This document shows, in pieces, positions 30,697 to 49,248 of a stretch of 64,000 nt of DNA (position 1 is the stretch's first letter; every line of letters starts with the position of its first letter). The notes under the pieces were generated by a model that saw only the letters and a list, made by a program, of their open reading frames with translations, made no database searches and was not told where the DNA came from. The position numbers were made by a program, and so were the translations under genes. The DNA is from Candidatus Lustribacter sp. (GTDB lineage: Bacteria > Vulcanimicrobiota > Vulcanimicrobiia > Vulcanimicrobiales > Vulcanimicrobiaceae), in assembly GCA_965277805.1 (NCBI GenBank), contig OZ255842.1:2912001-2976000 (forward strand). The letters run 5' to 3'.

Positions 30697-30711
30697 AGAC
30701 GACCGCACGCT

Positions 30712-31410
30712 ATGAGCGGCGAACCGCTACCCGCACGCTTCGCCGAATACATCGCCAGGTTCCGCGAACCCGGTGATGAGCTCTCGATGGCCCGCTATCC
30801 CGGGTTGCCGTCGAAACCGTGGTACGATCCGGCCACGATTCCGGCCGCGCGAGAACTCGAGCGTGCCGCTCCGCAGATCTCGGCGGAGTTTCGGCGGCTC
30901 TATCCGCGCGCGTTCGTGCCCGAAAACGAACCGATCAGCCGCGAAGGCGCGTGGGACGTGTTCATCCTCTACGAACGCGGCAAGCGGCACGACGACCGCT
31001 GCGCGTCATTTCCCACGGTCACGGCGATCGTCGAGGGGAACCGCACGGTGCGCAGCCTCGCCGGGCTCGTCTACTTCTCGCGCCTAGCGCCGCACACGCG
31101 CGTGGCCAGGCATTCCGGGCCGACCAACATGCGCGTGCGCGCGCATCTCGGCATCGATATCCCGCCGGACTGCGGAATCCGCGCCGGCGAAACGACGGCC
31201 ACGTGGCAGAACGGCCGCTGCCTCGTCTTCGACGATTCGTTTCCCCATGAAGTCTGGAACGAGAGCGATCGCGAGCGCATCGTGCTGGTGGTCGACCTCT
31301 GGCATCCCGATCTGAGCGACGACGAGGTGCGGCTCCTCGACGGCTTCCAGCGCTACGTGGAGCGCGCGGCAAAGGGGCTGCAGGGCTACTGGTTAGCGAA
31401 TGAACGCTAG
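30712..31410 (+). CDS. Aspartyl/asparaginyl beta-hydroxylase domain protein (2OG-Fe(II))
   Basis: FSRLAPHT..RHSGPTN.R.RAHLG, FDDSFPHEVWN, RIVLVVDLWHP. Confidence 0.88.
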   Translation: MSGEPLPARFAEYIARFREPGDELSMARYPGLPSKPWYDPATIPAARELERAAPQISAEFRRLYPRAFVPENEPISREGAWDVFILYERGKRHDDRCASFPTVTAIVEGNRTVRSLAGLVYFSRLAPHTRVARHSGPTNMRVRAHLGIDIPPDCGIRAGETTATWQNGRCLVFDDSFPHEVWNESDRERIVLVVDLWHPDLSDDEVRLLDGFQRYVERAAKGLQGYWLANER

Positions 31411-33283
31411 CGTGGACCGTTCCGCGCCGGCGCCGCTCATCGCCGTTCGTTACGCGCTGCTTTTGCTTACATCCGCGACTGCGCTGTACTATTTCCAGTG
31501 GCGCATCGGGGTGTTCAATCCGGCCCACCCGGTCTATTCGTGGATCGTCTTCGCGGCTGAGCTCATCGGCTTCGCGCGGACCTTTCTGTTTCTGCTGGTG
31601 TCCGTTCGCGTTCCAGATCGCGACGACGTGGCCACGGCGCCGCCGGGGCTCAGCGTCGACGTCTTCATTCCCACGGTTAACGAACCCGTCGACATCGTGC
31701 GGCGCACGGCGTTTGCGGCGCTTGGGCTTACGTATCCGCACGAGACCTGGATCCTCGACGATGGTGAACGCCCCGAGATGCGTGCGCTCGCCGCGGAGAT
31801 TGGTTGCCGTTATGCGGCCCGCACCGAACACAACGATACAAAGGCCGGCAATCTCAATCATGCCCTCGGGCTCGCGCAGGGCGACTTCATCGCGATCTTC
31901 GATGCCGACCACGTCGCCGATCCGCGTTTCCTCGAGCGCACGCTGGGCTATTTCAGCGACGAACGGCTCGCGTTCGTACAAACGCCGCAAGAGCTGTTCA
32001 ACACCGATTCATTCGATCACCTGAGAACCCAGCGCACGACGTCAAACGGTGCGTCGTTCTTCCACCGCGTGATCCAGCGCAGCCGCGACGCATCGAACTC
32101 GACGATCTACAGCGGCTCATCGGCCGTGCTGCGCCGCCGGGCACTCGATGCGATCGGGGGCTTTGCCACCGGCACGATCAGCGAGGACGTGCACACCTCG
32201 TTCCGACTGCACGCCGCCGGTTGGGGATCCGTTTTCCATCCCGAGATTCTCTCGGCCGGCATGGGACCGCTCAACGCCGCTGCCTACTGCGCGCAGCGTT
32301 TGCGCTGGTCGCAAGACACGCTGCAGTTACTGCTGTGCGAAAATCTCTTCGCACATCCGACGCTGACCTGGCGCCAGCGCTTGGCCTACATCATCCACGC
32401 CGCAAGCAACCTCGAAGGGTGGCGGCACGTCTTCATCTACGCGCTCCCGATCGCGATCCTGTTCACCGGCATCCTCCCGCTGCAAACGAGCGCGACGAGC
32501 TTTCTGCTTCACTTCGTGCCGTACTTTCTGGCCACGAACATCACCCTCAGCGAATTCGCGCGCGGGCATCTGCGCGTTGACGAAAGCGCAATCTTTAACC
32601 TCGCCCGCGCACCCGCATCAATTCTAGCGGTCTTCACCGCACACGGTGCGCACCGCTGGCGCGTGACGCCGAAAGCGCTCGGCGCTCCCGAACGCGCCGC
32701 AGAGATGCGGTTCGCGGAAGCCGTTTTGGCGCTCTCGTCGGCCGCGATCGCCTTCGCGTGCATCGAAGAGTTCAGCGGCCGCTCGCAACTCAGCCGCGGC
32801 GCGCTCGCGCTGGTCATCATATGGGCGGCGTATCACGTCAGCACCGGCGCGCGCCTCTTGGCGCTCGAATGGCGCTGCGCGCACAATCGCCGTGCGACGA
32901 CGCGCTTCGGCGAACGGCTTCCGGCGGTGATCCAGCGTACGGACGATCCGCAAACGGCCTATGCGGTCGACATCGTGGCCGCATCGGCCGACGGCCTCAC
33001 GTTGCAAACCCCCGATCGGTCTTCGATACCGGCCGCCGGTACGTATCACGGCGAACTTGCTGTTGGAGCGGCACGTTATGCGTTCACGATCGACCTTGCC
33101 GGCGTCCGCGCCGGCGGTCCCGTACGATGGCCTGACGACGCGACGCGCAGTGCCTTCGATCAATACCTGCACCAAAGGGCGATCGCACGCTTCGGGGCGA
33201 CGGACCGCGGCGACCGCGGCGGCATTTTCCGCGCCGCCGAAGCGCTAGGGCGGAACGACCTGGAAAAACATGCGCGTTCGTGA
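31400..33283 (+). CDS. GT2 processive glycosyltransferase, BcsA-like with PilZ-like tail
   Basis: LDDG, KAGNLN, DADH, FVQTPQ, SED, QRLRW, VTPK, RATTR. Confidence 0.88.
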   Translation: MNASVDRSAPAPLIAVRYALLLLTSATALYYFQWRIGVFNPAHPVYSWIVFAAELIGFARTFLFLLVSVRVPDRDDVATAPPGLSVDVFIPTVNEPVDIVRRTAFAALGLTYPHETWILDDGERPEMRALAAEIGCRYAARTEHNDTKAGNLNHALGLAQGDFIAIFDADHVADPRFLERTLGYFSDERLAFVQTPQELFNTDSFDHLRTQRTTSNGASFFHRVIQRSRDASNSTIYSGSSAVLRRRALDAIGGFATGTISEDVHTSFRLHAAGWGSVFHPEILSAGMGPLNAAAYCAQRLRWSQDTLQLLLCENLFAHPTLTWRQRLAYIIHAASNLEGWRHVFIYALPIAILFTGILPLQTSATSFLLHFVPYFLATNITLSEFARGHLRVDESAIFNLARAPASILAVFTAHGAHRWRVTPKALGAPERAAEMRFAEAVLALSSAAIAFACIEEFSGRSQLSRGALALVIIWAAYHVSTGARLLALEWRCAHNRRATTRFGERLPAVIQRTDDPQTAYAVDIVAASADGLTLQTPDRSSIPAAGTYHGELAVGAARYAFTIDLAGVRAGGPVRWPDDATRSAFDQYLHQRAIARFGATDRGDRGGIFRAAEALGRNDLEKHARS

Positions 33284-34744
33284 CGTGCTCGACAGACGAT
33301 GCAACCAGTTCGCCGGCACCGATCCGATACGCCTGAACCCTTGCGGGCCGGCGTCTAGGACGACCGGCCGGCAGCGCGCCCAATCCGGATACTCGCGCAC
33401 GTACTGGGCCGGCGAATCGTCGACGATGATCCGCGAGCCGAGCACTTTTTCAACCGCCGCGCCGTAGCCGAGTGAGTGGGAATCGGACCAGCCCGCAACT
33501 ACGATCGCACCGTCCGGGACGGTGCTCAGTACGTCGTCGATGGCGGACTGATTGCTCGGATACGTCCCTCCGAGAGGGAACGCCCGTGGAGAAAACGCCG
33601 CCACCAGCACGACGGCAACGAGAGCGATTGTCGCCGCCGCGGATGTTATCTTCTGCGGCACCTTCGGCAGCGCAAGGCGTGTACTCGTGGCCGCGAGTGC
33701 TGCGATCAGTGCCAACGATCCAAGCAAATAACCATGCACGTTGTCATCGTTGCGGTAGATCTGGGCAAATGCGATACCGCCGATGCTGCCGCAGGCAAGG
33801 ACGCTCAGGGAGCGCCGGTCGCTTCGCGCAAGCGCAACCAATCCGATCGCGCCGAGTACCAGGAGCCCGAATGAAAACTCTTCGCCGGCGGCTCTGAAGA
33901 CAAAGACGCCGGCTTTCGGATAGACGTTGAGATCGAGCATATGCGCAAGCGATGTACTCGCGTGTTCTTTGCGTCCCAAGACTTCATTGAGAAATCCGTC
34001 GAGCGTTCGCGGCTGGTTGGTATCCCAGTCGATCGATTCGACGCCGAACAGCGGTGCGGCCGCCGTCGGATCCAGATGTTGCGCGGCCACGATCGACGAG
34101 CGCAGAGGAAAATAGAGATAGAGCAGCAGAGGCGCGAGGAAGGCGAGCATGACGAAGCCGAGCGTGCGGCGGTCGAAGCGTTGGCGTTGCCACAGCGCGG
34201 ACACGATCACACCCGGCACGGCGAACAGCGCGAGCGGGTGCGCGGCGATCCCCAAGCCCGTGCACGCACACGCCGCAACGAATGTGCGGCGGTCGCCGGA
34301 GCGGGCGAACGAAACGCTCAGCGCCAGCGCGAAAATGATCGCGGGAACCGCGAAGACTTGAACGTTGGCTTGCTCGGCCTGTTGCCACGAGATAAGGCCA
34401 AAGGCAAACGTGAGACCGGAGGCCAGCGCCGCGATTGGTTGACTTTCAAGCGTCAGCGCGAGCACGGTTACACCCGAAGCGCAAAGCGCGACGGCCGCGG
34501 CCGTCAACACGTTTAGCCGCCATGCAACGGTTCCGAATGCCACGACGTGGGTGAATAGCCAACCGAGCAGCGTATATGCCGGAAAACCGGTCGCATGCGC
34601 GATGCCGAGGATGTAAGGAACGGTTTGGGCTTCGGCGTTGTCACCCGCCGAGACGGCCGATGAAAGCGAGGGTAGGTAGCAGATCAGCGCTCCGGCAAAG
34701 GCGACGATCGCCGCCGCGACGGCCTGCCGGCGCGCTTGCGTCAA
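33245..34744 (-). CDS. DUF2723/TMEM260-like GT-C glycosyltransferase, copy 1
   Basis: GDNAEAQTVPYILGIAHATGFPAYTLLGWLF, WRLN, multiple TM helices, YLYFPLR; TTG 34744 overlaps the upstream TGA. Confidence 0.8.
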   Translation of the reverse strand: MTQARRQAVAAAIVAFAGALICYLPSLSSAVSAGDNAEAQTVPYILGIAHATGFPAYTLLGWLFTHVVAFGTVAWRLNVLTAAAVALCASGVTVLALTLESQPIAALASGLTFAFGLISWQQAEQANVQVFAVPAIIFALALSVSFARSGDRRTFVAACACTGLGIAAHPLALFAVPGVIVSALWQRQRFDRRTLGFVMLAFLAPLLLYLYFPLRSSIVAAQHLDPTAAAPLFGVESIDWDTNQPRTLDGFLNEVLGRKEHASTSLAHMLDLNVYPKAGVFVFRAAGEEFSFGLLVLGAIGLVALARSDRRSLSVLACGSIGGIAFAQIYRNDDNVHGYLLGSLALIAALAATSTRLALPKVPQKITSAAATIALVAVVLVAAFSPRAFPLGGTYPSNQSAIDDVLSTVPDGAIVVAGWSDSHSLGYGAAVEKVLGSRIIVDDSPAQYVREYPDWARCRPVVLDAGPQGFRRIGSVPANWLHRLSSTSRTRMFFQVVPP

Positions 34745-35019
34745 TCGACGCCGATATCCCAAACTGCGTCGAGTTCGCGCTTCGCAAAGGCCCGGAACGC
34801 AATCATCGTTTCCGTACTCGTAATCCCGGGCCGATTCGCAATCACCTCGGTCACCAGATCGCTCAACTGGTCGTGTTCACGTACGCGCACGATCGCTATG
34901 AGGTCGAACGGCCCCGCGACACTGTATACCTCGGTCACCCCTTTGACCGAGAGAAGCTCCTCGGCGAGCGATTTGACGCGGCCCGGCTCGACGCTGAGCA
35001 TAACGAAGGCGGTAATCAT
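34741..35019 (-). CDS. Lrp/AsnC ligand-binding-domain-only protein
   Basis: GVTEVYSVAGPFDLIAIVR, PGITSTETMIAF; no HTH. Confidence 0.88.
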   Translation of the reverse strand: MITAFVMLSVEPGRVKSLAEELLSVKGVTEVYSVAGPFDLIAIVRVREHDQLSDLVTEVIANRPGITSTETMIAFRAFAKRELDAVWDIGVD

Positions 35020-35277: not shown

Positions 35278-35582
35278 CCCGGCCGTGTTCGCCGCCCCTT
35301 GCCCGCCGCTTCTTCCCCGCGCCGGCGCCGTCGTCTGTCAAAATGCTTACTAAGGCTAACAATTTGACTAAGCGTGAAGTCACAGTCTAGCGGCTTGGCC
35401 AGGGCACGGTAAAAGCGGTCCCGTAAGAACGCTCGTCCGGTATGCGGGCAGCCAGTCGATTGCGTCGGCGCTAATGCTGAACGGGCATCGGGACGACTAC
35501 TAGAGTGGGGTGGCGGCTGCTAAGGCGGCCTTCAAAGCATACCCTTTGGGTGTTTTTCGATCGGAGTCGGGACACGAGCACG

Positions 35583-36722
35583 ATGACCAAGGAACGAAAT
35601 CTGATCGCTTTCGCCGTTATAGCGGTCCTTGCCGCGTGTGGCGGGGGCGGCGGCGGCGGCACGGCATCGCTTCCCAGCGGCCCGAGCTCCGTCACCGCGA
35701 CGCCGACGCCGGGCGCGATCGCCACATCCACGCCGGCGCTGCCGGCCGGCTACGCGGTCGACAGCGTCTCGATCACCATGGCGAAGGGCACCTATGTCGC
35801 CGCCTCGACCCGTAATGTCCAGGCTATCGGCACGGGCACGCAGTCGATCGTATTTACGCTCTTGCAGCAGAACGGGGTGCCGCTCACCGGCGCGCCGCAG
35901 ACCTTCGGTTTGACCGGCTCCAGCTCAGGGTGCACGACGAATCCGAACACCCAAGCGTTGACCTGCGTTCTGCCGGTCAACGCTCCCGTCGGACAGGACG
36001 TCTTCCTCGCGCAGACCTACTCGAATGCGAACGGCACGGGAAGCCTGACCGGAAGCGGGGCCGTAGCGCTCAGCGTCGGCATCAATTCCACGAATACCGC
36101 CTCGATCGTGCTCAACGCACAGGTCGCCTCGGTGCTCGTCGTCACCGGCAGCTTCTATCTCGGTAACTACGTGAACTCGCAGGCCATATCGCGACGCGCC
36201 GGCACGTCCGCGCTTCGGCAGATCGCGACTCAAGGAACAGTGTACCCGAACGTGTCGTCGACGCAGGTCTTCGTCGTGGCCGTCGATAGTTCGGGCAACA
36301 CGATTTTGAACCCATCGACCTACAGCTCGCCGGTCTACCTTCAACTCGCGTATGACTACACCGATGGCCTCTCCGGTGGCGTGCCGATGACGGCCGACGT
36401 CACCTTGACGGCGACCTATGCGGCGAACGATCCGGCCCCGTGCACGGGAGGCAGCGCGACGGCCGCGGGCTGGTATACGAGCTTTGCGCTCTGCTCGCCG
36501 AGCGACATCGTTACCGCCAGCATGACGCCGAACGTCCTCGCGAGTCCGTCATGGGACGCCTACGTTCTCGGACAGACCAACTCGAACTTACTGCTTCCGA
36601 CGCCGGCGCCAAACACGACCCCAGCGCCGATAGCCTCGCTCCCGGCAACGAACTCGTTTGCTGATATTTACGTCATCTATCCCACCACCCCGCCCGGCAA
36701 TATCACGGTGATCGGACAATGA
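35583..36722 (+). CDS. Surface lipoprotein A (Ser/Thr-rich beta-sandwich family)
   Basis: MTKERNLIAFAVIAVLAA-CGGGGGG lipobox; ATG 35583. Confidence 0.85.
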   Translation: MTKERNLIAFAVIAVLAACGGGGGGGTASLPSGPSSVTATPTPGAIATSTPALPAGYAVDSVSITMAKGTYVAASTRNVQAIGTGTQSIVFTLLQQNGVPLTGAPQTFGLTGSSSGCTTNPNTQALTCVLPVNAPVGQDVFLAQTYSNANGTGSLTGSGAVALSVGINSTNTASIVLNAQVASVLVVTGSFYLGNYVNSQAISRRAGTSALRQIATQGTVYPNVSSTQVFVVAVDSSGNTILNPSTYSSPVYLQLAYDYTDGLSGGVPMTADVTLTATYAANDPAPCTGGSATAAGWYTSFALCSPSDIVTASMTPNVLASPSWDAYVLGQTNSNLLLPTPAPNTTPAPIASLPATNSFADIYVIYPTTPPGNITVIGQ

Positions 36723-38254
36723 GGCGCAGCGGAATGCGAACGACATTCTACACTCTCGGAGCCGCAGCGGTAATCGGCAGCGTCCTGACGGCGTGCGGCG
36801 GCGGTTCGTCATCGTCGTCTCAGTCGACGGTGCCCCTGCCGTCGTCGTCGATCCCGCCGGTCGTGCAAGGCATAACGCCGACCGGACCGACCGCGCCGAT
36901 GACGATCACCATCGCCATCCCGCAACATGTCACGACGACCGCCGCAGCACACGCTTTGGTAAGCAAACGCATCCACGCGCTCTACGGAGCGAAGAGTTCG
37001 GATTCCCGGATCCGCACGATGGCCAACACATCGCCGTCGGCATCGATTCGTCAGGCCGGCGCGCAGTTGGAGAAGTCGGCGAAACAAATCGAGCTAAAGA
37101 CGGGCCGCAGCCCTGAGTACGTTTCGCCCGGCACGTATTATATGGAATTAGTGATGTCGTCCGGCGCGACGAACGTCTCCGATCAAACGGCCTACTGCTC
37201 GGTATCCTCTAACCAGTGCTCGGCAACGTTTAACGTTCCGGTGGGCACAGGTTTCACTGCAGCGCTTTACTTATACGACGATTGCGACTACTTGCTCTCC
37301 GCCGGCGCGGCATCGAACGTGACCATCGTCTCCGGTTCGAACGCGCCGCTCACGATCACGTTAAACCCCGTCGTCGCCTATTTCGACGTCACCGCAACCG
37401 CGACGACTCCGTTCATCGCCGATCCGTCGCAGGCGCAAACGTTCAACGTTTCGGTGACGCCGCTCGATGCAGAGTATTACAATAACAGCCAGCAGAACGT
37501 CGTCACCACGCCCGGCGTTCTGGTTGACTCGACGTTCCATCAAATCACCTCGGTGACGCTGGCGCTCTCATCGGCCTACCCCGACGTCACACCGTCGGGG
37601 CCGCAAACGTTGAACGTGCCGGTGTTGGCGCAAAACTCGATCAACACGTATACGTTCCCGACGACCTCGTACACCTTCGGTGGAACCGGTACCGAGGGGA
37701 GCGTCGTTTGGACGGCGACCCCCAACACCGTCGGAAGCCCGATCGTCCCGACGAACGAGCGCGGCCCTTATTCTGACGGCACGCCGAGTCCCGGCACAAA
37801 CGTCGGCTCCCTCTCCATCACCGACAATCCAGTGGCCCTTAGCTGGACCAATCCGCAGGGATACCCGCAAAGCAGTGGTGATCCGGTGATTGCGTCGCAG
37901 GGCACCGGTACCAACGTCACTTACTGGTCGGCCGAGTTCCCGAACCCGGCCAATACCAGCACGTACACCTTTGGGCTCAACGAGAATATCCCGTTCAGCG
38001 GAAACATCACGCTCAGCGATAACGGCCAGTGCGTATCGAGCGTCGTTTCCTCGTACACCCCAACTCTCGGTACCTATCCCTTCTCCCAGCTCAACACGAG
38101 CCCGTACGTTCTGATCACGATGAACTCCAGCAGTAACACGGCGGCGTGTATCGTCACGGCGACCGATGACGCGGCCACACCGCGCAGTACCCAACTGCAG
38201 ATCTTCGTCGACAGTTCTACACTGACTATTCAGAATAAAGCGAGGGCCCATTAA
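36719..38254 (+). CDS. Surface lipoprotein B
   Basis: LTA-CGGG lipobox; RSPEYVSPGT; ATGA overlap with A. Confidence 0.85.
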   Translation: MRRSGMRTTFYTLGAAAVIGSVLTACGGGSSSSSQSTVPLPSSSIPPVVQGITPTGPTAPMTITIAIPQHVTTTAAAHALVSKRIHALYGAKSSDSRIRTMANTSPSASIRQAGAQLEKSAKQIELKTGRSPEYVSPGTYYMELVMSSGATNVSDQTAYCSVSSNQCSATFNVPVGTGFTAALYLYDDCDYLLSAGAASNVTIVSGSNAPLTITLNPVVAYFDVTATATTPFIADPSQAQTFNVSVTPLDAEYYNNSQQNVVTTPGVLVDSTFHQITSVTLALSSAYPDVTPSGPQTLNVPVLAQNSINTYTFPTTSYTFGGTGTEGSVVWTATPNTVGSPIVPTNERGPYSDGTPSPGTNVGSLSITDNPVALSWTNPQGYPQSSGDPVIASQGTGTNVTYWSAEFPNPANTSTYTFGLNENIPFSGNITLSDNGQCVSSVVSSYTPTLGTYPFSQLNTSPYVLITMNSSSNTAACIVTATDDAATPRSTQLQIFVDSSTLTIQNKARAH

Positions 38255-39351
38255 TGAGCCGCCTCTCTCGGGCCGGTGCTGCAGCCCTAACGGCAGCGAT
38301 CGTCCTTGCGGGATGCGGCGGCGGCGGCGGCAGCAGTGCCGCGCCGCCGAGCAACGCGCAGTCCGCGCCTACCACCATCACGAAGGTTGCTCCGCCGGCG
38401 GCAGCCGGCCGCACGTCATACGGCACGGCGAAGCTTACCCTCGCCCTGCCGAAGGCGCTCCGCGGTAGCACGACGGCAAACGTGGTACGAGCAATTCCGC
38501 ACGGGAAGGCCACCACGGCGTCAACCGGTCGCCATGCGCAATTCGTCGATCCATCTCCCGCGCCGGGCGTGGGCGTCTGTCAAGGAAACGTCATCGACAT
38601 CTATGTCGACGGCTCACTCATTCCGGCAATCGATGGCCAGGGCGAACAACCCGATTCGCTTTGCGTTCAGAGCTCGATCGACGGAACGCAGACCGTTAAC
38701 GTCCCGCTCTTCTCCAGCAGCAACAACGAAGTCGTCGTGGTTGAGTGGGATCCTTACGTTTCGAGTATCCTGGCATTGGGAGAAACGAACTACGGCAACT
38801 TCAGCCCGGGAAGTGCAGTGAATCTGACGGTGACGATGCAGGAGAACGCGCAGTACATCGGCGTCACCGATCTCAGCTTCAACGGGCCGCAGCTGATGAC
38901 GGGCGGGACGTGGTACGACCTCGTTGGATCCTGTCCGGGAACATCGCAATTCACCGCCTTTACGGCGGACTTCAACGGCGTGTTTATTCCCGTCGCGGGC
39001 TACGGTGGAACCTCGAATCCGGTTCTCACCGGAACGTCGGACAATGGCGGTACGTCCAGGCTCACGCAATCATCTGCAGCCGGCGTTTACGTCGTCTCGT
39101 GGGATTCGAATTGCGACGGCGTCGAGGCATCTGCTACGGCACCGAACCCCGTGTATTCGATCTACGGTGACGTCACTAACACCAATTACTACAACTACTA
39201 TAACGACTACCATTATTACAATGAGGTAGGTTCGCCGAACCAGGGCATTTGGAACCTGGTCTACGTGTTCAACGACACGTTGGGCCAGAATTTCTATCAG
39301 CTCAGCACCCCGACTATCAACGGCACCATCGACATCCAAAACGACGGCTAG
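38254..39351 (+). CDS. Surface lipoprotein C
   Basis: LAG-CGGGGG lipobox; RHAQFVDP; TAATG overlap with B. Confidence 0.85.
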   Translation: MSRLSRAGAAALTAAIVLAGCGGGGGSSAAPPSNAQSAPTTITKVAPPAAAGRTSYGTAKLTLALPKALRGSTTANVVRAIPHGKATTASTGRHAQFVDPSPAPGVGVCQGNVIDIYVDGSLIPAIDGQGEQPDSLCVQSSIDGTQTVNVPLFSSSNNEVVVVEWDPYVSSILALGETNYGNFSPGSAVNLTVTMQENAQYIGVTDLSFNGPQLMTGGTWYDLVGSCPGTSQFTAFTADFNGVFIPVAGYGGTSNPVLTGTSDNGGTSRLTQSSAAGVYVVSWDSNCDGVEASATAPNPVYSIYGDVTNTNYYNYYNDYHYYNEVGSPNQGIWNLVYVFNDTLGQNFYQLSTPTINGTIDIQNDG

Positions 39352-39379
39352 AAACACAACGCTCGTCACCGCCGCCGTC

Positions 39380-40849
39380 GTGGCGGCGGTGGCGCTGGCC
39401 GTATACCTCCCACAGGTACCGGCGGGCGTCGGCGTCGGCGACGAAGCGGAAGCGCAAACGGTTCCCTACATCCTCGGGATCGCGCATACACCCGGCTTTC
39501 CCGTGTTCACGCTCGCGGGCTGGCTCGCTTCACATGCCATACCGTTCGCGAGCGTTGCGTGGCGAATGAACGCTTTCAACGCGGCATGCACGGCTGCGGG
39601 CGCTGCCGGCATCGTTCTGCTCGCGGTTGAACTCGGGGCCGGGATTTTTGCGGCGGCTGCAGCGGCGTTCGTTTTCGCATTCGGCAATACGATTTGGAAC
39701 GGCGCATTGCACGTGAACGTGCAAGTGCTTGCTGCAACGTTGGGGATCTACTCCCTCTGGGCCAGCGTCAGGTTTTCGCGTGACGGCAGCACGCGCACGC
39801 TCGTCGCCGCGTGCGGGTTCTGCGGACTCGGAATCGCGGCGCATCCGGCCGTAATCTGGATCGTCCCCGGCGTGATCGTGGCTGCGCTCATACAATGGCG
39901 GTGCTTATCAGTCAAGGTCGTGGCACTCGGCGTACTGGTACTCATCGTTCCGCTCTCGTTGTATGCCTACGTTCCGCTTCGCGCGCACGTGATCGCAGCG
40001 CATGGGCTCGACCCGCTGGCCGCAGCGCCCTTCGGCGGCTTGGGTTCGTTCGACTGGAGCACAGCCACACTACAGGGTTCCGGGAGCCCCGCGCAACGTT
40101 TTGTGGGACACGGCGATGTTGCGGTCCTCCGCTCACTCGATCCGGGCCCGCTTCCCCAGGCGGCGAACACCTGGATCGCGCTCGCACTCGCGCAATACCG
40201 TCTGCTATTCTTACTGCTCACCGGCGCCGGACTCGTCGCGCTCGCGCAGAGCAATCGTCGTGCGCTGGCCGTTCTCATCGCCGGCACGCTCGGCGGAATT
40301 GCCTTCGCGTACACGTACCGCCTCGACACCCACCTGGACCGTTACCTCATCGTTTCGTTTGCGGTTACCGCAGCGGTCGCCGCGGCGAGCACGCAACTGC
40401 GTATTCCGCGCGTGCCCGATATGGCCGTGCGAACCATTACCCTCATCGCGCTCGCGTTACTTGCGGTCAATGCCGGGACGAATAATGCACCGCTGCCCCC
40501 CAGCCGCCTCGATGTTCCGGGAGAAGCGATTATCGCGGCTGCTCGCCACGACACGCCGGCAAACGCGATCGTCGTCGCGCAGTGGAACGACGCGACCGCC
40601 CTCGGATACGGCACCTTCGTCGAGCATTCGCTGGACGGGCGAACGATCGTCGATGCGTGGCCGAATCAATTCAGCAACCGCTACGAATCCTGGGCGCGCA
40701 CGCGCCCGGTCATCCTCTTCGTCAGTCCGCTAGCGGCACTCCGAATCTATCCGATGTGGGCCAATCTGCGTGAGCTCGACAGCACCCTACCCACGTACCG
40801 CGTCTTTGCGGTAGTGGCGCCGCGCCCGCACCGGCACCGCAGGCGCTAG
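39380..40849 (+). CDS. DUF2723/TMEM260-like GT-C glycosyltransferase, copy 2
   Basis: GDEAEAQTVPYILGIAHTPGFPVFTLAGWL, WRMN, YAYVPLR; multiple TM helices; start approximate. Confidence 0.8.
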   Translation: MAAVALAVYLPQVPAGVGVGDEAEAQTVPYILGIAHTPGFPVFTLAGWLASHAIPFASVAWRMNAFNAACTAAGAAGIVLLAVELGAGIFAAAAAAFVFAFGNTIWNGALHVNVQVLAATLGIYSLWASVRFSRDGSTRTLVAACGFCGLGIAAHPAVIWIVPGVIVAALIQWRCLSVKVVALGVLVLIVPLSLYAYVPLRAHVIAAHGLDPLAAAPFGGLGSFDWSTATLQGSGSPAQRFVGHGDVAVLRSLDPGPLPQAANTWIALALAQYRLLFLLLTGAGLVALAQSNRRALAVLIAGTLGGIAFAYTYRLDTHLDRYLIVSFAVTAAVAAASTQLRIPRVPDMAVRTITLIALALLAVNAGTNNAPLPPSRLDVPGEAIIAAARHDTPANAIVVAQWNDATALGYGTFVEHSLDGRTIVDAWPNQFSNRYESWARTRPVILFVSPLAALRIYPMWANLRELDSTLPTYRVFAVVAPRPHRHRRR

Positions 40850-41241
40850 TCGTCGTCGGATTCGTGCAAGTGCAGATGCGAGCCGTCTTCGGCGTCATCG
40901 AGCACTTCGCGCGCTTCGCTGAGGACGCTCGCGGGTAACGTTCCGCCGCGTTCGACCGTGCCTTCGGGCGCGAGGAAGTCGAGTTCGTCCCAGTCTTCCC
41001 ACGTTTCCAACCGCTCGGTCTCGTCGTCGACTTCGCGACCGTCTTCGTCGGGGAAGCGCACGCAGTAACCCTGGTCGATGTGCAAGCCGGTCACGAGCAC
41101 GCGCGTCCCTTGCGGGTAATACGTCCCGTCTTTCCAGAGGGTGCCGGACGTGGTGTCGTAATAGGTGCCGATGCGTATCGGTTCGATGGTTCGGTTTCTC
41201 CGTTGCGCGACGTCGTGCGCGTTGGCCGAGTGTTTCCGCAT
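40846..41241 (-). CDS. Acidic hypothetical protein
   Basis: Coding-like codon usage; ATG 41241; divergent from the NUDIX gene. Confidence 0.65.
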   Translation of the reverse strand: MRKHSANAHDVAQRRNRTIEPIRIGTYYDTTSGTLWKDGTYYPQGTRVLVTGLHIDQGYCVRFPDEDGREVDDETERLETWEDWDELDFLAPEGTVERGGTLPASVLSEAREVLDDAEDGSHLHLHESDDD

Positions 41242-41265
41242 CGCGCTCGAAATTCCCCATAACGC

Positions 41266-41817
41266 ATGAGCGATCAACCGCTGCGCCACTGGACCGTACG
41301 CTCGTCAACTTATCGCGTAAACGAGCCGTTTCTGCGCGTTCGCAGCGATACGGTCGAACTACCCGACGGTACAGTCATCGAGAACTACTTCGTGCGGGAG
41401 AGCCGCGGCTTTGCGATTGTGGCCGCGATCACGCCGGACCGCCGGATCGTCTTGGTACGCCAATATAAACACGGTATCGCGCAGATCGTGCTCGAGCTTC
41501 CGGCCGGGATGATCGACCCCGGCGAAGCGCCCGAGGCGTGCGCGATTCGTGAACTCGCCGAGGAAACCGGGTACGCGGGCGAGCCGCCACGGCTACTCCG
41601 AACGCTCTTTGCCGACCCGACCAGTTCCAACGCCAGCTTCCACGTGTTCCTGATCGAGAACGCGGTGCCGAAATTCGCCCAGTCGCTCGACACGACCGAG
41701 GCGATCGTGGTCGAAACGGTGACCATCCAGGAGCTGCACACGGCCGTCCGCGACGGACGGATCGGCTCCGGTTCGCAGGTCGCAGCGGTGTACGTCGCCT
41801 TGGATCACATTCAGTAA
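41266..41817 (+). CDS. NUDIX hydrolase (ADP-ribose pyrophosphatase-like)
   Basis: LVRQYK, ELPAGMIDPGE...AIRELAEETGY Nudix box. Confidence 0.92.
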   Translation: MSDQPLRHWTVRSSTYRVNEPFLRVRSDTVELPDGTVIENYFVRESRGFAIVAAITPDRRIVLVRQYKHGIAQIVLELPAGMIDPGEAPEACAIRELAEETGYAGEPPRLLRTLFADPTSSNASFHVFLIENAVPKFAQSLDTTEAIVVETVTIQELHTAVRDGRIGSGSQVAAVYVALDHIQ

Positions 41818-41874
41818 CGGCCCGCTCCGGCAATACGGGGAAGCGCCCGGAAGCCGTCTAATCGGGATACGGTA

Positions 41875-43872
41875 ATGAATGCCCGGTTGCAGTCGTTGGG
41901 TTTTGCCGTTGGCGGTTCACTCGCGCTGGCCGCCGTAACGGCATGCGGCGGCGGTGGGGGCGGATCCGGCGCGCCAGGCGCGCCCGTGCCCAACGTCACC
42001 AGCACCCCGGGCTCCTTCGCCCAAGGCACTGCCGGGGCGTCGATCACGCTTTCGCTACGGCAATATTCGCCGGTCGACACCTCGGCGACGAAGCGCCGCG
42101 CGGCCTACGTGTCGCCGGCCACCGCGCAGATCTCGCTGACCGTCATCTCGGTGAACGGGACGCGCGTGACCGGGACGCCCACGACGTTTCCGGTCAGCCC
42201 GACCTCGCCCGGCTGCAGCGGAACGAACGGCGTCGTGACGTGCACGCTCAACGCAAACATTCCGATCGGCAACGACGTGCTCACCGCGAGCACGCTCGAT
42301 GCGAACGGACATTCGCTCGGCACGTCGACGATCACGGCGAGCATCCAGCAAAACCTGGCGAACAGCATCGCGCTCTCGGTCGGCGGCACGATCGCGAGCC
42401 TGCAGATGTATCTTTCGCAAACGCAATTCGCATCGGGCACGCCGGGCACGGCCAACGTCATCGTGGTTCCGCTCGATCAATCGGGCGCCGAGATCGTCAA
42501 CCCGGGCAACTACAACCCGTCGATCGCGTTGACGTCGAGCAGTTCCGTGAACGGCCACGTTTCGCTGATCACCGACGGCGTGAACACCGGTCAATCCGGC
42601 ACGATCGTCAGCCCCAACGACCAAATCGTCGTCAACTACGACGGCGTCGCGACGAGCGGCGGCAGCACGATCACCGCGAACGCCGGCGGCGGCATCACCG
42701 CGAGCCGCAACGTCTCCGTGAGCTCGCCCGGACTCGGCGCGAGCCCGTCGGGCGCGCAGTTCGTTTCGTCCTCCTCCTATGTGTTTACGGCGGTCGGACA
42801 GACCGGCACGATCAACGTTTCCGGCGGCACCGCGCCCTACACCGTGGTCTCGAGCGATACCGGCGTCGCGACGATTTCCGGCACCGGACCGTTTACCGTA
42901 ACCGCCGCGGGCTACGGCACGGCGGGGACGTCGACGATCACCGTGACCGATCATGTCGGCGCGCACACCACCATTCCGGTGACGTTCATCGCGCCGGCCA
43001 TTCTACTCACCGCGAGCGTCTGCGGCGGTACGACCTGTTCCGCCGGCGGCGTTTCGTATACGGTGCCGATCGGCGGCCCCACGAGCCCGCTCTCGCCGAC
43101 GACCGTCACGGCCGTCGGCGGCACCGGAACGTACGGCTACTTCTTCATCTCGAGCGGAACGACGACCAGTCAATACGCGACGGTCTCGCAAGGCGGCAAT
43201 ACGTTCACGATCACGCCGAGCGGTTTCGGCAACGACGCGATCATCGTTACCAGCGGCAATCAGACGGCGTACTATGCGATCGTCGCGAGCGCCGACGCGT
43301 TCGGATCGACGCTGCCGGCCGCGATCGGCATGCTCTTCGAGAGCAGCGGCGGCGGCGCGAAATTCTACTCGGCAACGCTGCCCAACGCGGTCACCAATGT
43401 CACGGCTTCTCCGCTGATCAGCGGCTTCATGTTCAACGCCGGCAGCCCGCCGTCGATCGACGCAACGCCGACGAGTCCGGGCAATGGAACGTTCTCGTTT
43501 ACCAGCGGTTTCGGCACGCCGACGACGATTCCGTACACGGTCTTCGGGCTTTCGTTCGGGTCATACCAGGGCAGCGGGTTCACGCAGAGTTCGGAAATGC
43601 CGGTTCCGGCCGACGAAGCGTTCACGGCCACCGGTGAATCCGATCTGCTCACCGTGAGCGGTTTGACGGCGAACTTCAACCTCAGCGCGCAATCGGCAAA
43701 CACCAGCGTCGTAACCGCCTCCGCGGCCGCAAATCACGTCACGGTCACGTCCGTCGGTTCGGGAACGACGACCGTGCTCTTAACCGATACCGGCAACGGC
43801 GCCACCGTGACATTCACCGTGAGCGTAACGAACACGCTGATTCCAATCGCCGGTCACCTGCGGAGCCGATAA
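41875..43872 (+). CDS. Surface lipoprotein D with Ig-like (Big_2-like) repeats
   Basis: VTA-CGGGGG lipobox; KRRAAYVSPAT; repeats VSGGTAPY..SSDTGVAT, VGGTGTY, SANTSVVT..VGSGTTTV. Confidence 0.85.
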   Translation: MNARLQSLGFAVGGSLALAAVTACGGGGGGSGAPGAPVPNVTSTPGSFAQGTAGASITLSLRQYSPVDTSATKRRAAYVSPATAQISLTVISVNGTRVTGTPTTFPVSPTSPGCSGTNGVVTCTLNANIPIGNDVLTASTLDANGHSLGTSTITASIQQNLANSIALSVGGTIASLQMYLSQTQFASGTPGTANVIVVPLDQSGAEIVNPGNYNPSIALTSSSSVNGHVSLITDGVNTGQSGTIVSPNDQIVVNYDGVATSGGSTITANAGGGITASRNVSVSSPGLGASPSGAQFVSSSSYVFTAVGQTGTINVSGGTAPYTVVSSDTGVATISGTGPFTVTAAGYGTAGTSTITVTDHVGAHTTIPVTFIAPAILLTASVCGGTTCSAGGVSYTVPIGGPTSPLSPTTVTAVGGTGTYGYFFISSGTTTSQYATVSQGGNTFTITPSGFGNDAIIVTSGNQTAYYAIVASADAFGSTLPAAIGMLFESSGGGAKFYSATLPNAVTNVTASPLISGFMFNAGSPPSIDATPTSPGNGTFSFTSGFGTPTTIPYTVFGLSFGSYQGSGFTQSSEMPVPADEAFTATGESDLLTVSGLTANFNLSAQSANTSVVTASAAANHVTVTSVGSGTTTVLLTDTGNGATVTFTVSVTNTLIPIAGHLRSR

Positions 43873-45704
43873 TGTACCGCGCACTCGCGCTCGTCGCATC
43901 AATCGGCATTCTCGCCGGTTGCGGCGGCGGTGGGAGCCACGCTCTGCCGAGCCCCGCATCCGGCTCATCCGGTTCGGGCACCAAAGGCGCGCAAGCGACG
44001 GCGCGGTTCAGTTTGACGATCCCGAACGCGAGTGCGGCACCCGCCGGCGCGCGCCGGGCGCAGTTCGTCTCGCCGTCGACGCTCTCCGGAACGATCGCGG
44101 TCAACGCCGGACCGGTAACCGAACTCGACCTCAGCCTCGCGAGCCCGAACTGTACGACGATTATTAACGGACGCAGTTGTTTGATCAGCGTCGCCGCCCC
44201 GATCGGCGCTTCCGACACCTTCACGCTGGTGCTCTACAACGGGTCGTTTACCAGCGGTATGCATACCGGTACCGCGCTATCGGGCGCGTCGAACTTCACC
44301 GCGGCGGTAACCGAAGGCGTCTCGAATATCACGACGCCGCTGATCCTCGGTGGAATTCCGAAATCGGTCGACGTCGTCATCAACGGGACGCTTACTGCGG
44401 GCACGCCCACGACGGTTCCGGTTGTGATCACCGCTTACGACGCGAGCAACAACGTGATCGTCGGCGCCGCGACCTTCGCCGACGCAACCGGCGCTGCCGC
44501 GCCGCTCACCCTCTCGCTAGGGACGCCGCAACAAGTGCTGCTCCACGACGGGGCTCAGGCCGCAACGAGCATCACCGTTGCGGGACCGGCCGATGCCGTC
44601 ACGTTGCAACTCCAAGCGCCGGCCAACGTGCTAGGCACGTATGTGTCGGTGAAGAATAGTTCGAGCCAAACGCTACCTGCGTTCAACCTGACGCGTTTCG
44701 TCGCGCTGAGCGGCACGTTGAACTCGACGCAGCTCGCGGCGTCGCTTACCTTCTTTCCGGATGACGTCTACTTCGCGCCGTCCGACAGCACGCTCGTCTC
44801 CGGCGTGCCGAACGGCTTCGCGTTCTCGTACACGACGGCGAGCGGCGGCGGATATCTCGGCTACTTCAACAGCGCGAACGAGGGTCTCTTATACTGTAGC
44901 GTCGTGAGCGGATTCACGCTCGGTATCGGTTCGATAACGAACGGCATCGTCAGCGCCTTCAATGGGGCCGATAACGTCGCGTCGCCCCCGACGGGGCTCG
45001 TCTATTACCCGCTGGGACAACTCACCAATACCGGGCCTGCGTGCGCGGGCGGCACGCCGTACACGAGCCCGGCGGGAGGTTTCGCCAAATCGCTCGCCTT
45101 CGATCCGAGCGGCAGCCAAGTTTTCGAAGGCGACAACAACGGCGACCTCGACGTCGATACGTTTACCGGACCGTCGACGCTCAGCGGTAACGCCGTCGTG
45201 CAGAACTACGGCGCGAACCACCCGCACGACTTGATCGCGCTCCAGGGAAGCCTCTACTTTCTCACCGGCACCACCAACAACACGCTCGACGGTCTCAACC
45301 CGACGATCGCCGCGACGGCGGGCAGCGACCACCTCACGTCGTTGCGCAACGGGCAAGACGGCCGCATCTATGCCCTCGGCGCTGCCAACAAACAAGTGTG
45401 GGTGTACAACGGCTCGCCTTCGATGCAGCAATACACGGCGGCGAACGCGTTCACGATCACGCCCTCGACGCAGCCGAACAACCTCGCGATCGGTCCGGAC
45501 GGCAGCGCCTACACGACGGACGGAGCCTCAACGATTCAAGGGGTCACGTCCGGCGGCGCCGCTTCGACGCTCGTCATCCCGCCGCCGGGCGGCAACATTG
45601 GATACCTCACGGGAATCTTCGACGGCCGCAACGGCTACTTGTATGCGGCCTACGACGACGGGCTCCACGCCGGTCACGAGTATTTCTATCGTATCTCGTA
45701 CTGA
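43872..45704 (+). CDS. Surface lipoprotein E with C-terminal beta-propeller-like domain
   Basis: LAG-CGGGG lipobox; RRAQFVSPST; blade-like motifs LAFDPSG, GQDGRIY, IGPDGSAY, GRNGYLY. Confidence 0.82.
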   Translation: MYRALALVASIGILAGCGGGGSHALPSPASGSSGSGTKGAQATARFSLTIPNASAAPAGARRAQFVSPSTLSGTIAVNAGPVTELDLSLASPNCTTIINGRSCLISVAAPIGASDTFTLVLYNGSFTSGMHTGTALSGASNFTAAVTEGVSNITTPLILGGIPKSVDVVINGTLTAGTPTTVPVVITAYDASNNVIVGAATFADATGAAAPLTLSLGTPQQVLLHDGAQAATSITVAGPADAVTLQLQAPANVLGTYVSVKNSSSQTLPAFNLTRFVALSGTLNSTQLAASLTFFPDDVYFAPSDSTLVSGVPNGFAFSYTTASGGGYLGYFNSANEGLLYCSVVSGFTLGIGSITNGIVSAFNGADNVASPPTGLVYYPLGQLTNTGPACAGGTPYTSPAGGFAKSLAFDPSGSQVFEGDNNGDLDVDTFTGPSTLSGNAVVQNYGANHPHDLIALQGSLYFLTGTTNNTLDGLNPTIAATAGSDHLTSLRNGQDGRIYALGAANKQVWVYNGSPSMQQYTAANAFTITPSTQPNNLAIGPDGSAYTTDGASTIQGVTSGGAASTLVIPPPGGNIGYLTGIFDGRNGYLYAAYDDGLHAGHEYFYRISY

Positions 45705-46722
45705 CGCGCCGGCAACGCCGACCGTCTCGGTCGTCATTCCGCTGCGGACGGCCGGGCCGAATCTGCGTGAGTGCCTCGCACACCTCACCCGTCAGACATA
45801 CCGGAACTTCGACATCTACGTTGTGCCGGATGCGCCGCTGACGCTCGGCGATGCACGATTGCACGTCATCGCCTCGGGACCCGTGCTGCCGAATCGTAAG
45901 CGCCAGATCGCCGCGGAAGCGAGTACCGCGGACATTCTCGCCTTCATCGACGACGACGCATACCCCGATCCGAATTGGCTCACCAACGCCGTGCGGCATT
46001 TCGACGACCCGAACGTCGTCGGTGCGGGCGGCCCCGCCGTAACCGCATCCAGCGATTCACCCCGGGAACGCGCGAGCGGTGCGATCTTCTCATCGGCACT
46101 CGTCACCGCTACGACGCGCCACCGCTACGTTGCGGAAGCGCAGCGCGACGTCGGGGCGCTGGCCTCGTGCAATCTGCTCGTGCGACGCGAAGCGTTTCTG
46201 CGCGATGCTGAGGCGAGCGTGCGCTACTGGCCGGGTGAAGACATTTTACTGTGCATGTTCGCCGCGCGTGACGGCGCGCGTATCGTCTACGACCCGACCG
46301 CGCTCGTCTACCACCACCGGCGCGCCGTCTTCGCCGGACATCTGCGCCAGGTGTGGGCCTACGGACGCTTCCGCGGCTTCTTCTTACGGCGTTTGAGCAC
46401 GTCGCGCAGCGATGCCGCGTATGCCGCGCCGGCAACGTTCGTGCTCGGACACGCGTTGCTGCTCGCAGCCCTCAGCCGGCCGCGCTGGCGCTTCGCCGGC
46501 GGCTTCATCGTCGGCGTGTATGCGGCGCTCGTCGCGTGGGAAGCGGTGCGCACGGCGCGTACCGAACGCGCCGATCCGTGGCTCGTCGCCGCCGGCATCT
46601 ACCTCACGCATTTCACCTATGGTCTCGGAACGATCGTCGGGTGGCTGCGCGGCTCGGCGATGTGGCCGCAATCAGCCGCTGTAACGCAAGCGGACGCGCA
46701 AGCCGAACAGCCGCCGGGCTAA
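45643..46722 (+). CDS. GT2 glycosyltransferase with C-terminal TM helices; start uncertain
   Basis: VSVVIP, LAFIDDDA, GEDILL, QVWAYGR. Confidence 0.85.
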   Translation: MRPTTTGSTPVTSISIVSRTDAPATPTVSVVIPLRTAGPNLRECLAHLTRQTYRNFDIYVVPDAPLTLGDARLHVIASGPVLPNRKRQIAAEASTADILAFIDDDAYPDPNWLTNAVRHFDDPNVVGAGGPAVTASSDSPRERASGAIFSSALVTATTRHRYVAEAQRDVGALASCNLLVRREAFLRDAEASVRYWPGEDILLCMFAARDGARIVYDPTALVYHHRRAVFAGHLRQVWAYGRFRGFFLRRLSTSRSDAAYAAPATFVLGHALLLAALSRPRWRFAGGFIVGVYAALVAWEAVRTARTERADPWLVAAGIYLTHFTYGLGTIVGWLRGSAMWPQSAAVTQADAQAEQPPG

Positions 46723-47894: not shown

Positions 47895-48200
47895 ATGAAC
47901 CTGTTCTACGTCGCCGTCGACGTTGCGGTCGCCATCTTAGCGATACGCTCGCTGGCCGTTCTCGGCACGCGAGCGCCGTGGACCAGCATCGGCTGGGTCG
48001 CCACGGCCGGTTACGGCCTCGCCGCCGGCTGGCGGTACGCCCACGACGGCCCGGTGCCGGGCATCGGCCTCGTGACGTCCGGCTGCTTCATCGTCCTGAC
48101 GGCCGCCTTCATCGTTGGGGTGGTGCGCGACGAACCCCAGGCCGAACCGTTGCTGTGGCCGACGCGCGTCGGCCCTACGCGGGCCGAGAAGCGCCGCTGA
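47895..48200 (+). CDS. Small membrane protein
   Basis: Three hydrophobic segments. Confidence 0.65.
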   Translation: MNLFYVAVDVAVAILAIRSLAVLGTRAPWTSIGWVATAGYGLAAGWRYAHDGPVPGIGLVTSGCFIVLTAAFIVGVVRDEPQAEPLLWPTRVGPTRAEKRR

Positions 48201-49248
48201 ACTGACCGAGGAAGTGCTCGAGCTCCGCGGGCGCGACACCGGCCGCGCCGGCCGCCGAACGCAGCCGGGCCAAGTCCGGGTCGACTCGCACGAGCAACGC
48301 GTCAGCCGGGCCGCCGAACGTGACTTGCGTGGCCGCCGCCGGGACGACGGCAGTTTCCCACGCCCGGAGGTCGACGGCGCCCGCTCCGCTTGCAGCCGTG
48401 AGCGGCGTATCCATGGCCATAAGCGCCAGCGGCCGGCCGCCCGTACCGATCGACGCGCCGGCGTTCGAAATGCGCAAGCGTTCCACGACGAAGCGCGGGT
48501 CGGCGATCGCGATGGTACGTTCGACGCCGCGCGCCGTGAAGGTCAACTGCGTCATCGCCCCCGGGAACGTCGCGCGGAAGTCCAGCACGTCACCGGCCTT
48601 GGCGACGTGCAGTTCGCGCGGCTTGCCGTCGGCGCCGGTGCGATTCCAGTCGAAGATGCGGTAGGTCAGATCGCTGGCTTGTTGCGTTTCGAAGAGCTGG
48701 ATCCCGGCGCCGATCGCGTGCAGCGTTCCGGCCGGTAAGTAGTAGGCGTCGCCGGGCTTGACCGGCACGCGGCGCAGGATGTCGCCGAGCGTACCGTCCG
48801 CGACGCGGCGTTCGTATTCCGCGCGGTCGGTGTCGCGCGTCCAGCCGAGCACGAGTTCCGCGCCGGGTTCGGCGGCCAGAATGTACCAGCACTCCGTCTT
48901 TCCGACGGGCTGATGTTCAACGCGCTGCGCATACGCATCGTCCGGATGCACTTGCACCGAGAGCGCCGCATGCGCGTCGATGATCTTCGTCAGCACCGGG
49001 AAGCGTTGCGTGGGATCGGCGGGTCCGGTGAGATCGCGGCCGAGCTGCGCGCGCACCGCGGCCAGTGTTTCACCGCTGTACGCGCCGCCGGTAACGGTGT
49101 TCTCATCCCAGCATTCCCACGACTCACCGAGCAATGCTGAGGCGTCGCCGGGTTTGCCGTAGCGCTTAACGAGCGCATCCCCGCCCCAGATGGCCGAAGC
49201 CATTTTTGGAGCGAGGACGAGCGGGGCCGTTCGTGTTGTGCTGATCAC
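48175..49248 (-). CDS. manA: Mannose-6-phosphate isomerase, class I
   Basis: IWGG, GESWE, LSVQVHP, KTECWY, GTLHAI, QQASDLTYR. Confidence 0.92.
   Translation of the reverse strand: MISTTRTAPLVLAPKMASAIWGGDALVKRYGKPGDASALLGESWECWDENTVTGGAYSGETLAAVRAQLGRDLTGPADPTQRFPVLTKIIDAHAALSVQVHPDDAYAQRVEHQPVGKTECWYILAAEPGAELVLGWTRDTDRAEYERRVADGTLGDILRRVPVKPGDAYYLPAGTLHAIGAGIQLFETQQASDLTYRIFDWNRTGADGKPRELHVAKAGDVLDFRATFPGAMTQLTFTARGVERTIAIADPRFVVERLRISNAGASIGTGGRPLALMAMDTPLTAASGAGAVDLRAWETAVVPAAATQVTFGGPADALLVRVDPDLARLRSAAGAAGVAPAELEHFLGQFSGASRPA

Follow-up and report, generated by a model that had tools for sequence, protein, structure and literature searches.

Type V pili, such as FimA–E and Mfa1–5 of Porphyromonas gingivalis, are the closest described counterpart of the system considered here. 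Their subunits are lipoprotein precursors with beta-sandwich domains, are encoded by clustered genes and have an anchor strand at the N-terminus, after which a loop carries a conserved Arg. The same features recur in five lipoproteins, designated A–E, which we analyzed in a 64,000-nucleotide stretch of Candidatus Lustribacter sp. (contig OZ255842.1, positions 2,912,001 to 2,976,000; hereafter the window, Table 1). Type V pili occur in class Bacteroidia, whereas the host of A–E belongs to Vulcanimicrobiota, in line with a cysteine synthase of relatives that is 97% identical and carries the label Candidatus Lustribacter. No sequence relation was found between the two sets of proteins. In the part of the literature cited here, the type V pili of Bacteroidia are so far the only described case of protease-mediated strand exchange; in these pili the anchor lacks a cleavage site, the tip lacks a donor and the stalk subunits have both (PMC13655056). 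What is new in the present analysis is a gene-order rule: a gene whose product ends in one type of module and a short tail (C-module) is almost always followed directly, on the same strand, by a gene for a protein with a second type of module behind its lipid anchor (N-module).

Several other described systems share particular traits with this locus. One example involves lipoproteins that combine immunoglobulin-like (Ig-like) domains with a beta-propeller, such as Leptospira Lp49 (3bws) and Bacteroides BT_3476 (3tc9), BACOVA_00264 (4hw6) and 3hrp, which have a lipobox, Ig-like domains and a propeller in common with E; E matched these structures with Foldseek E values of 1e-8 to 4e-6 and sequence identities of 9–12%. 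To our knowledge, neither a conserved Arg loop nor a tail-bearing partner is known for such proteins. Another example is O-mannosylation by glycosyltransferases of the C fold class (GT-C), which is carried out on IPT domains by human TMEM260 and on lipoproteins by the actinobacterial protein O-mannosyltransferase (PMT); here, genes of the TMEM260-like family PF11028 are located beside those of Ser/Thr-rich Ig-like lipoproteins. We know of no substrate for the bacterial TMEM260 homologs, which are mentioned only as distant in the cited part of one report (PMC10214176). In cohesin-dockerin cellulosomes, terminal modules of gene products pair and enzyme-like heads are carried on an anchored scaffold, and in donor-strand systems (chaperone-usher pili, archaeal cannulae and haloarchaeal fimbriae of the twin-arginine translocation, or Tat, type) a terminal module pairs with that of the next product, as may be the case here. 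However, these systems show no homology to A–E, and all parts of the present system are lipoproteins. Cohesins were found among the fold matches of A only as generic Ig-like domains (4uyp, Z 5.7; 2vo8, Z 5.2).

Two unannotated modules

A–E are predicted to be Sec/signal-peptidase-II lipoproteins of a diderm bacterium. Each has a lipobox (LAAC, LTAC, LAGC, VTAC and LAGC, respectively) with a run of Gly behind it. The genome has genes for signal peptidase II (LspA) and an Omp85 protein, and an outer membrane is present in the cultured relative Vulcanimicrobium according to the cited part of a published description (PMC9758169). Located directly behind the lipidated Cys and its tether, the N-module begins with a first strand that ends in Pro; there follow a flexible loop carrying an invariant Arg, the motif QYVSPST, a Cys pair, a PxG motif and a beta-sandwich. 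The Arg motifs are TRNVQAIG in A, RSPEYVSP in B, RHAQFVDP in C, RRAAYVSP in D and RRAQFVSP in E; the Cys pair and P(V/I)G are present in A, B, D and E, and C departs from the others in its Cys pair. An initial annotation, made from the letters of the window, had pointed out this plan, which is indeed present in the sequences; given the profile matches and Arg conservation described below, the pattern is far more than chance. In the AlphaFold2 model of A (predicted local distance difference test, pLDDT, 76), two beta-sandwich domains cover residues 55–177 and 180–367, and the C-terminus has two short strands with Pro-rich linkers between them. The propeller-like end assigned to E was borne out by its model (pLDDT 85), in which the beta-propeller spans residues ~284–609 (nucleotides 44721–45698), and by Foldseek, which gave filamin-NHL, virginiamycin B lyase and WD40 proteins as best matches.

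A profile of the shared N-module identified 16 open reading frames (ORFs) in the 5.53-Mb genome, including the five described here and 11 elsewhere. When 1.84 billion proteins were searched, it matched 3677 cluster representatives at E≤1e-3, of which 2476 also passed E≤1e-10. The N-module was detected in 107 of 201 genomes sampled from the phylum; this tally and those given below for relatives of A, PF11028 and C-module loci include genomes flagged as unpublished. It was present in 98 of 113 genomes of the same family, in two neighboring families (3 of 3 and 4 of 15) and in one genome out of three of family f18, and was not found in any of the 66 genomes of the other 16 families sampled. Of 41 related genomes, 12 had relatives of A itself, and these were mostly of a single genus. 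Among the 146 best representatives, a lipobox was found within the first 60 residues in 124 and a Pro...Arg..(F/Y)VSP motif in 120, and the median distance between Cys and Arg was 42 residues. Pfam searches returned no family at E≤1 for any of A–E, type V pilin families included; nothing in NCBIfam scored above the cut-offs for A–E, and the N-module profile retrieved no pilin from the sequences in PDB at E≤10. Literature searches under Eremiobacterota (the former name of Vulcanimicrobiota) together with lipoprotein, or under type V pili, found nothing on such lipoproteins. Judged by these sequence comparisons, A–E belong to a large family that is restricted to one lineage and combines two modules lacking annotation.

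The domains that follow the N-module are diverse, but most are propellers of one kind or another. In 77 N-module proteins, a Pfam scan found Vgb_lyase (18), NHL (14), Reg_prop (14), SGL (9), TEN_NHL (8), PQQ (4), arylesterase (3) and subtilase (1) domains, the single subtilase-carrying protein having a Peptidase_S8 domain. Four of the 77 matched PF13629, which represents the N-terminal region of pilus formation proteins.

The second module, the C-module, is an Ig-like C-terminal domain of ~90 residues that contains a Cys pair of its own and ends in a tail of the form ...VxVxVTTT-x-x-V-Q/N/G, which is often followed by a few basic residues. It was first noticed among the neighbors of the 11 scattered N-module paralogs, in small lipoproteins encoded just upstream. 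B and D end in a C-module and tail, as do many small lipoproteins. The initial annotation had described the ends of A–D as alternating beta-strands. The tail sequences are present, and that of A (GNITVIGQ) is kept in ~20 orthologs; however, AlphaFold2 placed no strand in the last 8 residues of A (pLDDT ~62), which qualifies this description. A regular expression for tail-like C-termini matched just 12 of the 15286 ORFs of the genome, and only A, B and C among these were lipoproteins (D escaped the pattern), so the tail is not a genome-wide sorting signal.

Gene order of C-module and N-module genes

In its own genome, the C-module profile, whose seeds were partly found via N-module neighbors, matched nine ORFs, six of which end in the module; all six are located directly upstream of an N-module gene. 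The weight of this result lies in the whole-genome search, which revealed no further protein ending in a C-module. We also carried out the reverse test, in which loci were chosen by the C-module alone (the first-listed match of each of 20 genomes). An N-module gene was present directly downstream on the same strand in 15 of these 20 loci, the misses being L037, L041 (divergent orientation), L047, L049 and L050. When 20 loci were instead chosen by the N-module only, a C-module-ending gene was found directly upstream in six and another arrangement in two.

Longer series were also detected. In two loci (L025 and L030), genes for a protein with only the C-module (C-only), a protein with both modules (N+C) and two N+NHL proteins follow one another; in a third (L021), the series is C-only, N+C, N and N, the C-terminal domains of the last two lying outside the Pfam scan. 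These series correspond, purely by analogy, to the anchors, stalks and tips of type V pili. In both systems some subunits have C-terminal elements of the donor type, heads lack them and anchors lack a cleavage site, these elements and sites being putative in the present system. The type V donor is a pair of strands of ~20 residues, whereas here an Ig-like C-module and a tail of 5–8 residues would take its place, and the heads are enzyme-like propellers, unlike those of type V pili. A lipobox was present in 21 of 24 C-only proteins, with a median distance of 35 residues from Cys to module, and many of these proteins contain little beyond a lipobox, a Pro/Thr tether and one or two C-modules. Whatever the mechanism, these searches define two large domain families without a Pfam model and a strong gene-order rule that links them, providing a first handle on the surface of Vulcanimicrobiota.

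Giant proteins with 9–11 tandem C-modules were observed in four loci (L039, 5403–8324; L047, 5823–9035; L048, 3398–5974; L049, 5521–8604). An N-module gene is next in two of the four, and the other two proteins end in ...LSINVKRS and have no partner. In one protein (P0115), an N-module starts 22 residues after a C-module tail with no lipobox between them; this single case may be a natural fusion. A similar candidate, P0086, was ruled out, because a second lipobox at the junction indicates read-through of two adjacent genes.

The conserved Arg and candidate modes of assembly

Conservation of the Arg in the N-module loop reached 90% or more among 44 relatives of A (R77), 32 relatives of E and 15 paralogs. 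The AlphaFold2 models place the first strand at residues 57–66 of A and 41–51 of E, and in both the conserved Arg falls within a stretch with pLDDT <50 (74–81 in A and 55–63 in E). Lys and Arg together account for 6.3–13.4% of residues in 17 neighboring proteins. In A–E, they account for 0.4–1.8% after the conserved Arg versus 3.4–11% between the Cys and this Arg; the few that remain in A are located in a second disordered loop, and those closest to the C-terminus of B and D come after the tail. Across 99 representatives, the median content was 7.5% on the N-terminal side of the Arg, fell to 2.1% in the core and reached 8.3% over the last 12 residues, and the stretch before the Arg was richer in Lys and Arg than the core in 92% of them. 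The tethers of C-only proteins had 15 Lys or Arg in 1392 residues (1.1%), compared to 85 in 1503 (5.7%) for the pre-Arg segments of N-module proteins from the same loci. Such a pattern would be expected if the proteins were exposed to a trypsin-like protease and offered it designed cut sites.

Additional basic segments were seen in two of the proteins. The second disordered loop of A (residues ~201–216, nucleotides 36183–36230) lies in domain 2 and holds its only other Arg residues (R204, R205 and R212); its pattern AR-G-GAQA-RR is conserved in orthologs and may represent a second processing site. B has a 60-residue Lys/Arg-rich insert between the first strand and the Arg (residues 61–130, nucleotides 36899–37108), which is absent in the other four.

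Taken together, four observations favor head-to-tail assembly of some kind on the envelope, which we regard as having nearly an even chance of being correct: the rule of gene order, the existence of minimal partners resembling anchors, an Arg that is invariant and lies in a flexible loop, and the distribution of Lys and Arg. The tail of one product would dock on the N-module of the product encoded next, resulting in short stalks that present heads such as the propeller of E, in the order anchor (C-only), adaptor (N+C) and head (N+propeller). The invariant Arg in a disordered loop, together with the Lys/Arg-free cores and anchors, fits a cleavage-and-replacement mechanism: a trypsin-like protease would cut after the Arg in the N-module loop, freeing the protein from its lipid anchor, and the released first strand would then be replaced by the tail of the C-module partner encoded just upstream. 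Arg-triggered strand replacement as the specific mechanism is a tentative proposal that we consider doubtful, and it appears similarly unlikely, if conceivable, that Vulcanimicrobiota convergently evolved a mechanism like that of the type V pilus from non-homologous parts, displaying propeller enzymes or binders on stalks. Cleavage, binding, strand exchange and filaments are at this stage predictions. If they are correct, protease-mediated strand exchange was invented a second time, independently, in a distant and barely studied soil phylum; it would be a general way of building surface structures from lipoproteins, with a grammar that spans thousands of unannotated proteins.

We also looked for components that such a process might use. 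Four trypsin-fold genes are present in the genome, and this family also matches in 11 of 14 control genomes. The gingipain family (PF01364, Peptidase_C25) had no match in the genome in a search that also matched none of the 14 controls, and the LolA family (PF03548) had none in a search whose control missed Bacteroides too. Among those ORFs of the window that were scanned with Pfam, no protease, usher or sortase gene turned up. A complex prediction for two copies of A cut after Arg77 (residues 78–379, with alignment) scored 0.00 against a mark of 0.42, which, with no controls, gives no answer either way.

Several observations weigh against the proposed head-to-tail assembly. The fold comparison suggested by the initial annotation did bring up relatives of type V pilins among the best structural neighbors of domain 1 of A (5cag, Z 6.0; 3liu, 5.8; 3r4r, 5.6; 3gf8, 5.5; 4qdg, 5.4; Mfa2 5nfi, 5.3), but these matches are weak and tie with CBM41, CBM20 and FN3 domains, and every fold match, including the best for the model of A (Z 6.7), is under Z 8, the noise band of the tool. 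The N-terminal domains of these relatives aligned to domain 1 over 89–106 residues with root mean square deviations of 2.7–3.8, and domain 2 resembles the Ig-like domain of glycoside hydrolase family 2 (GH2) and macroglobulin domains. Foldseek matches of the model of A were also weak (best E 1.2e-4 for integrin alpha-V, Gram-positive pilins and antibody Fab fragments, with template modeling (TM) scores <0.25), among which the type V relatives 3liu and 3r4r ranked 40th and 49th; an ESM Atlas look-up of A gave a lipoprotein cluster with Big_7 (0.83) and Big_2 clusters (0.79), all below the 0.9 level. As for gene order, approximately 9 of the 16 N-module genes of this genome have no upstream partner, 12 of the 20 loci chosen by the N-module have no C-module within ~5 kb, and 130 of the 146 representatives are N-only, without a C-module. 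The sampled genomes are related and their counts not independent, so the counts overstate the rule, and the genes could be adjacent as a result of tandem duplication and common regulation. The tails are only 5–8 residues long compared to a first strand of 10–11, and some of them are Gly-rich (TTGGGQ, VGGN) and not strand-like. Low charge may be general for exported proteins in this organism, since Asp and Glu are also down (3–9%), and it could explain part of the Lys/Arg pattern. The fixed Pro-to-Arg spacing and the strong conservation of QYVSPST would also suit a structural or recognition motif. Finally, the gene set varies within the genus: D and E are missing in one genome (G002), and in another (G004) D is missing and the only match to E is a 127-residue ORF.

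Much of this evidence could be accommodated if A–E were independent stalked lipoproteins, in which the N-module is a membrane-proximal spacer, the Arg is structural, adjacency arose via duplication, domain loss or co-regulation, and no N-to-C assembly takes place. N-modules precede many unrelated heads in the 77 proteins scanned, many representatives and N-module loci lack the C-module as counted above, E resembles ordinary Ig-plus-propeller lipoproteins such as Lp49 and BT_3476, and the fold matches are of generic Ig/CBM type. This explanation is a possible one of some weight, though in our view short of probable. It leaves unexplained the C-then-N order in six of six genes and 15 of 20 loci, in which the C-module-ending genes are never last in such arrays, and the existence of minimal C-only lipoproteins; nor does it account for an invariant Arg in a low-confidence loop or for depletion of Lys and Arg in cores and anchor tethers and not in the pre-Arg stretch. 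The initial annotation had favored a long type V-like filament, with A–D as stalk subunits that undergo C-terminal strand exchange after Arg cleavage and E as tip adhesin. The evidence for Arg-triggered strand replacement applies to it equally, A–D have an acceptor-like N-module and a tail and E an N-module only, and the two short end strands of A recall the two donor strands of type V stalk pilins, as described in the cited part of PMC13655056. However, such a filament is improbable: the locus has no anchor-like C-only gene, its gene set is not conserved in the genus (G002, G003 and G004) and A has relatives in few of the related genomes, the proteins have no sequence membership in pilin families, and the series elsewhere are short (2–4 genes) and end in enzyme-like propellers, suggesting short stalks and not filaments. 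The more general idea of an analogous type V-like architecture outside Bacteroidota is supported, as an architectural analogy, by gene order, series and Lys/Arg pattern; membership in the pilin family is not supported by the sequence searches or by the fold matches, which tie with CBM and FN3 domains.

A different reading involves glycosylation. The strand A/B motif of the N-module would be the acceptor sequon of TMEM260-like O-mannosyltransferases, making the cassette a bacterial counterpart of IPT O-mannosylation. Two of the three PF11028 genes of the genome are located at this locus, both scoring above the cut-off and one following C closely, a glycosyltransferase family 2 (GT2) gene comes directly after E, and a phosphomannose isomerase gene is nearby. 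The TMEM260b product matches the human TMEM260 structure 9rql (E 6.7e-13), and TMEM260b diverges alongside the lipoproteins (43–54% identity versus 82–95% for the flanks in G003 and G004). According to the cited parts of two preprints (bioRxiv 10.64898/2026.03.17.711096 and 10.64898/2026.09.21.753134), human TMEM260 recognizes, in the Ig-like IPT domain, a sequon that runs from strand A to strand B in extended form. On the other side, PF11028 was present in 19 of 19 genomes of family f6, none of which had the N-module, and five genomes with 10–19 N-module matches each (G131, G143, G185, G020 and G213) had no PF11028 at E≤1e-5; this phyletic mismatch lowered the standing of the N-module motif as a general TMEM260 sequon. 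The bacterial proteins match only approximately the first 200 residues of human TMEM260, so that the peptide-binding tetratricopeptide repeat (TPR) part is not seen, no polyprenyl-phosphate mannose synthase was identified, and the Pro/Thr tethers are more usual targets of O-glycosylation. We therefore consider the sequon explanation very unlikely, and O-glycosylation by the glycosyltransferases of the locus is likely but would be secondary to the proposed head-to-tail assembly.

Features and variability of the locus

Positions of the genes and their parts are given in Table 1; the outer limits of A–E agree with those of the initial annotation (35583–45704). The genes form two translationally coupled series, one of A, B and C followed by a TMEM260-like gene, and the other of D and E followed by the GT2 gene. 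A and B overlap by 4 nt (ATGA), and B/C and D/E by 1 nt each.

Table 1. Genes and sequence features of the lipoprotein locus (positions within the 64,000-nucleotide window)
Feature	Position	Strand	Description and evidence
Cellulose-synthase-like GT2	31400..33283	+	Conserved left flank of the variable cassette
TMEM260-like GT-C glycosyltransferase a	33245..34762	-	PF11028, E 2.7e-14
Gene A	35583..36722	+	379 aa; predicted lipoprotein, atypical N-module (TRNVQAIG), second beta-sandwich, Pro-rich linker, last strand, tail GNITVIGQ
Lipobox Cys19 codon of A	35637..35639	+	Sequence
First strand of A (residues 57-66) and loop to Arg77	35751..35813	+	AlphaFold2 and conservation
Tail GNITVIGQ of A	36696..36719	+	Corresponds to the first strand of an additional C-module in alignments with longer relatives
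Gene B	36719..38254	+	511 aa; predicted lipoprotein, N-module (Arg130), C-terminal C-module, tail STLTIQN then NKARAH
Lipobox Cys codon of B	36794..36796	+	Sequence
Gene C	38254..39351	+	365 aa; predicted lipoprotein, N-module (Arg93), Tyr/Asn-rich C-terminal domain, tail GTIDIQN
Lipobox Cys codon of C	38314..38316	+	Sequence
TMEM260-like GT-C glycosyltransferase b	39380..40849	+	PF11028, E 1.9e-13; 28 bp downstream of C
Gene D	41875..43872	+	665 aa; predicted lipoprotein, N-module (Arg74-Arg75), Ig-like repeats, C-module, tail TLIPIAG then HLRSR
Lipobox Cys codon of D	41944..41946	+	Sequence
C-module and tail of D	43594..43869	+	Alignment; hidden Markov model (HMM) E 8.4e-15
Gene E	43872..45704	+	610 aa; predicted lipoprotein, N-module (strand 41-51, Arg61-62), second Ig-like domain, beta-propeller, no tail
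Lipobox Cys codon of E	43920..43922	+	Sequence
GT2 glycosyltransferase directly after E	45706..46722	+	PF00535, E 5.8e-15; start codon uncertain
Class I mannose-6-phosphate isomerase	48175..49248	-	TIGR00218, E 5.1e-28, below curated cut-off

The cassette from TMEM260a to E (33245–45704) is hypervariable between species of one genus (L001–L003), with flanks that are 63–95% identical. For example, in one of the related genomes (G003) the lipoproteins are 33–43% identical versus 92–95% for the flanks. This variability suggests a variable, probably exposed set of proteins.

On the right side of the cassette, a 319-residue ORF on the minus strand (46672–47631) lies beside the GT2 gene and had no Pfam, NCBIfam or PDB sequence match. 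Upstream of the cassette, the region 28963–33283 encodes an ATP-dependent DNA ligase, an OlsC/LpxO-like lipid hydroxylase and the cellulose-synthase-like GT2, the latter two of which point to an envelope-related neighborhood.

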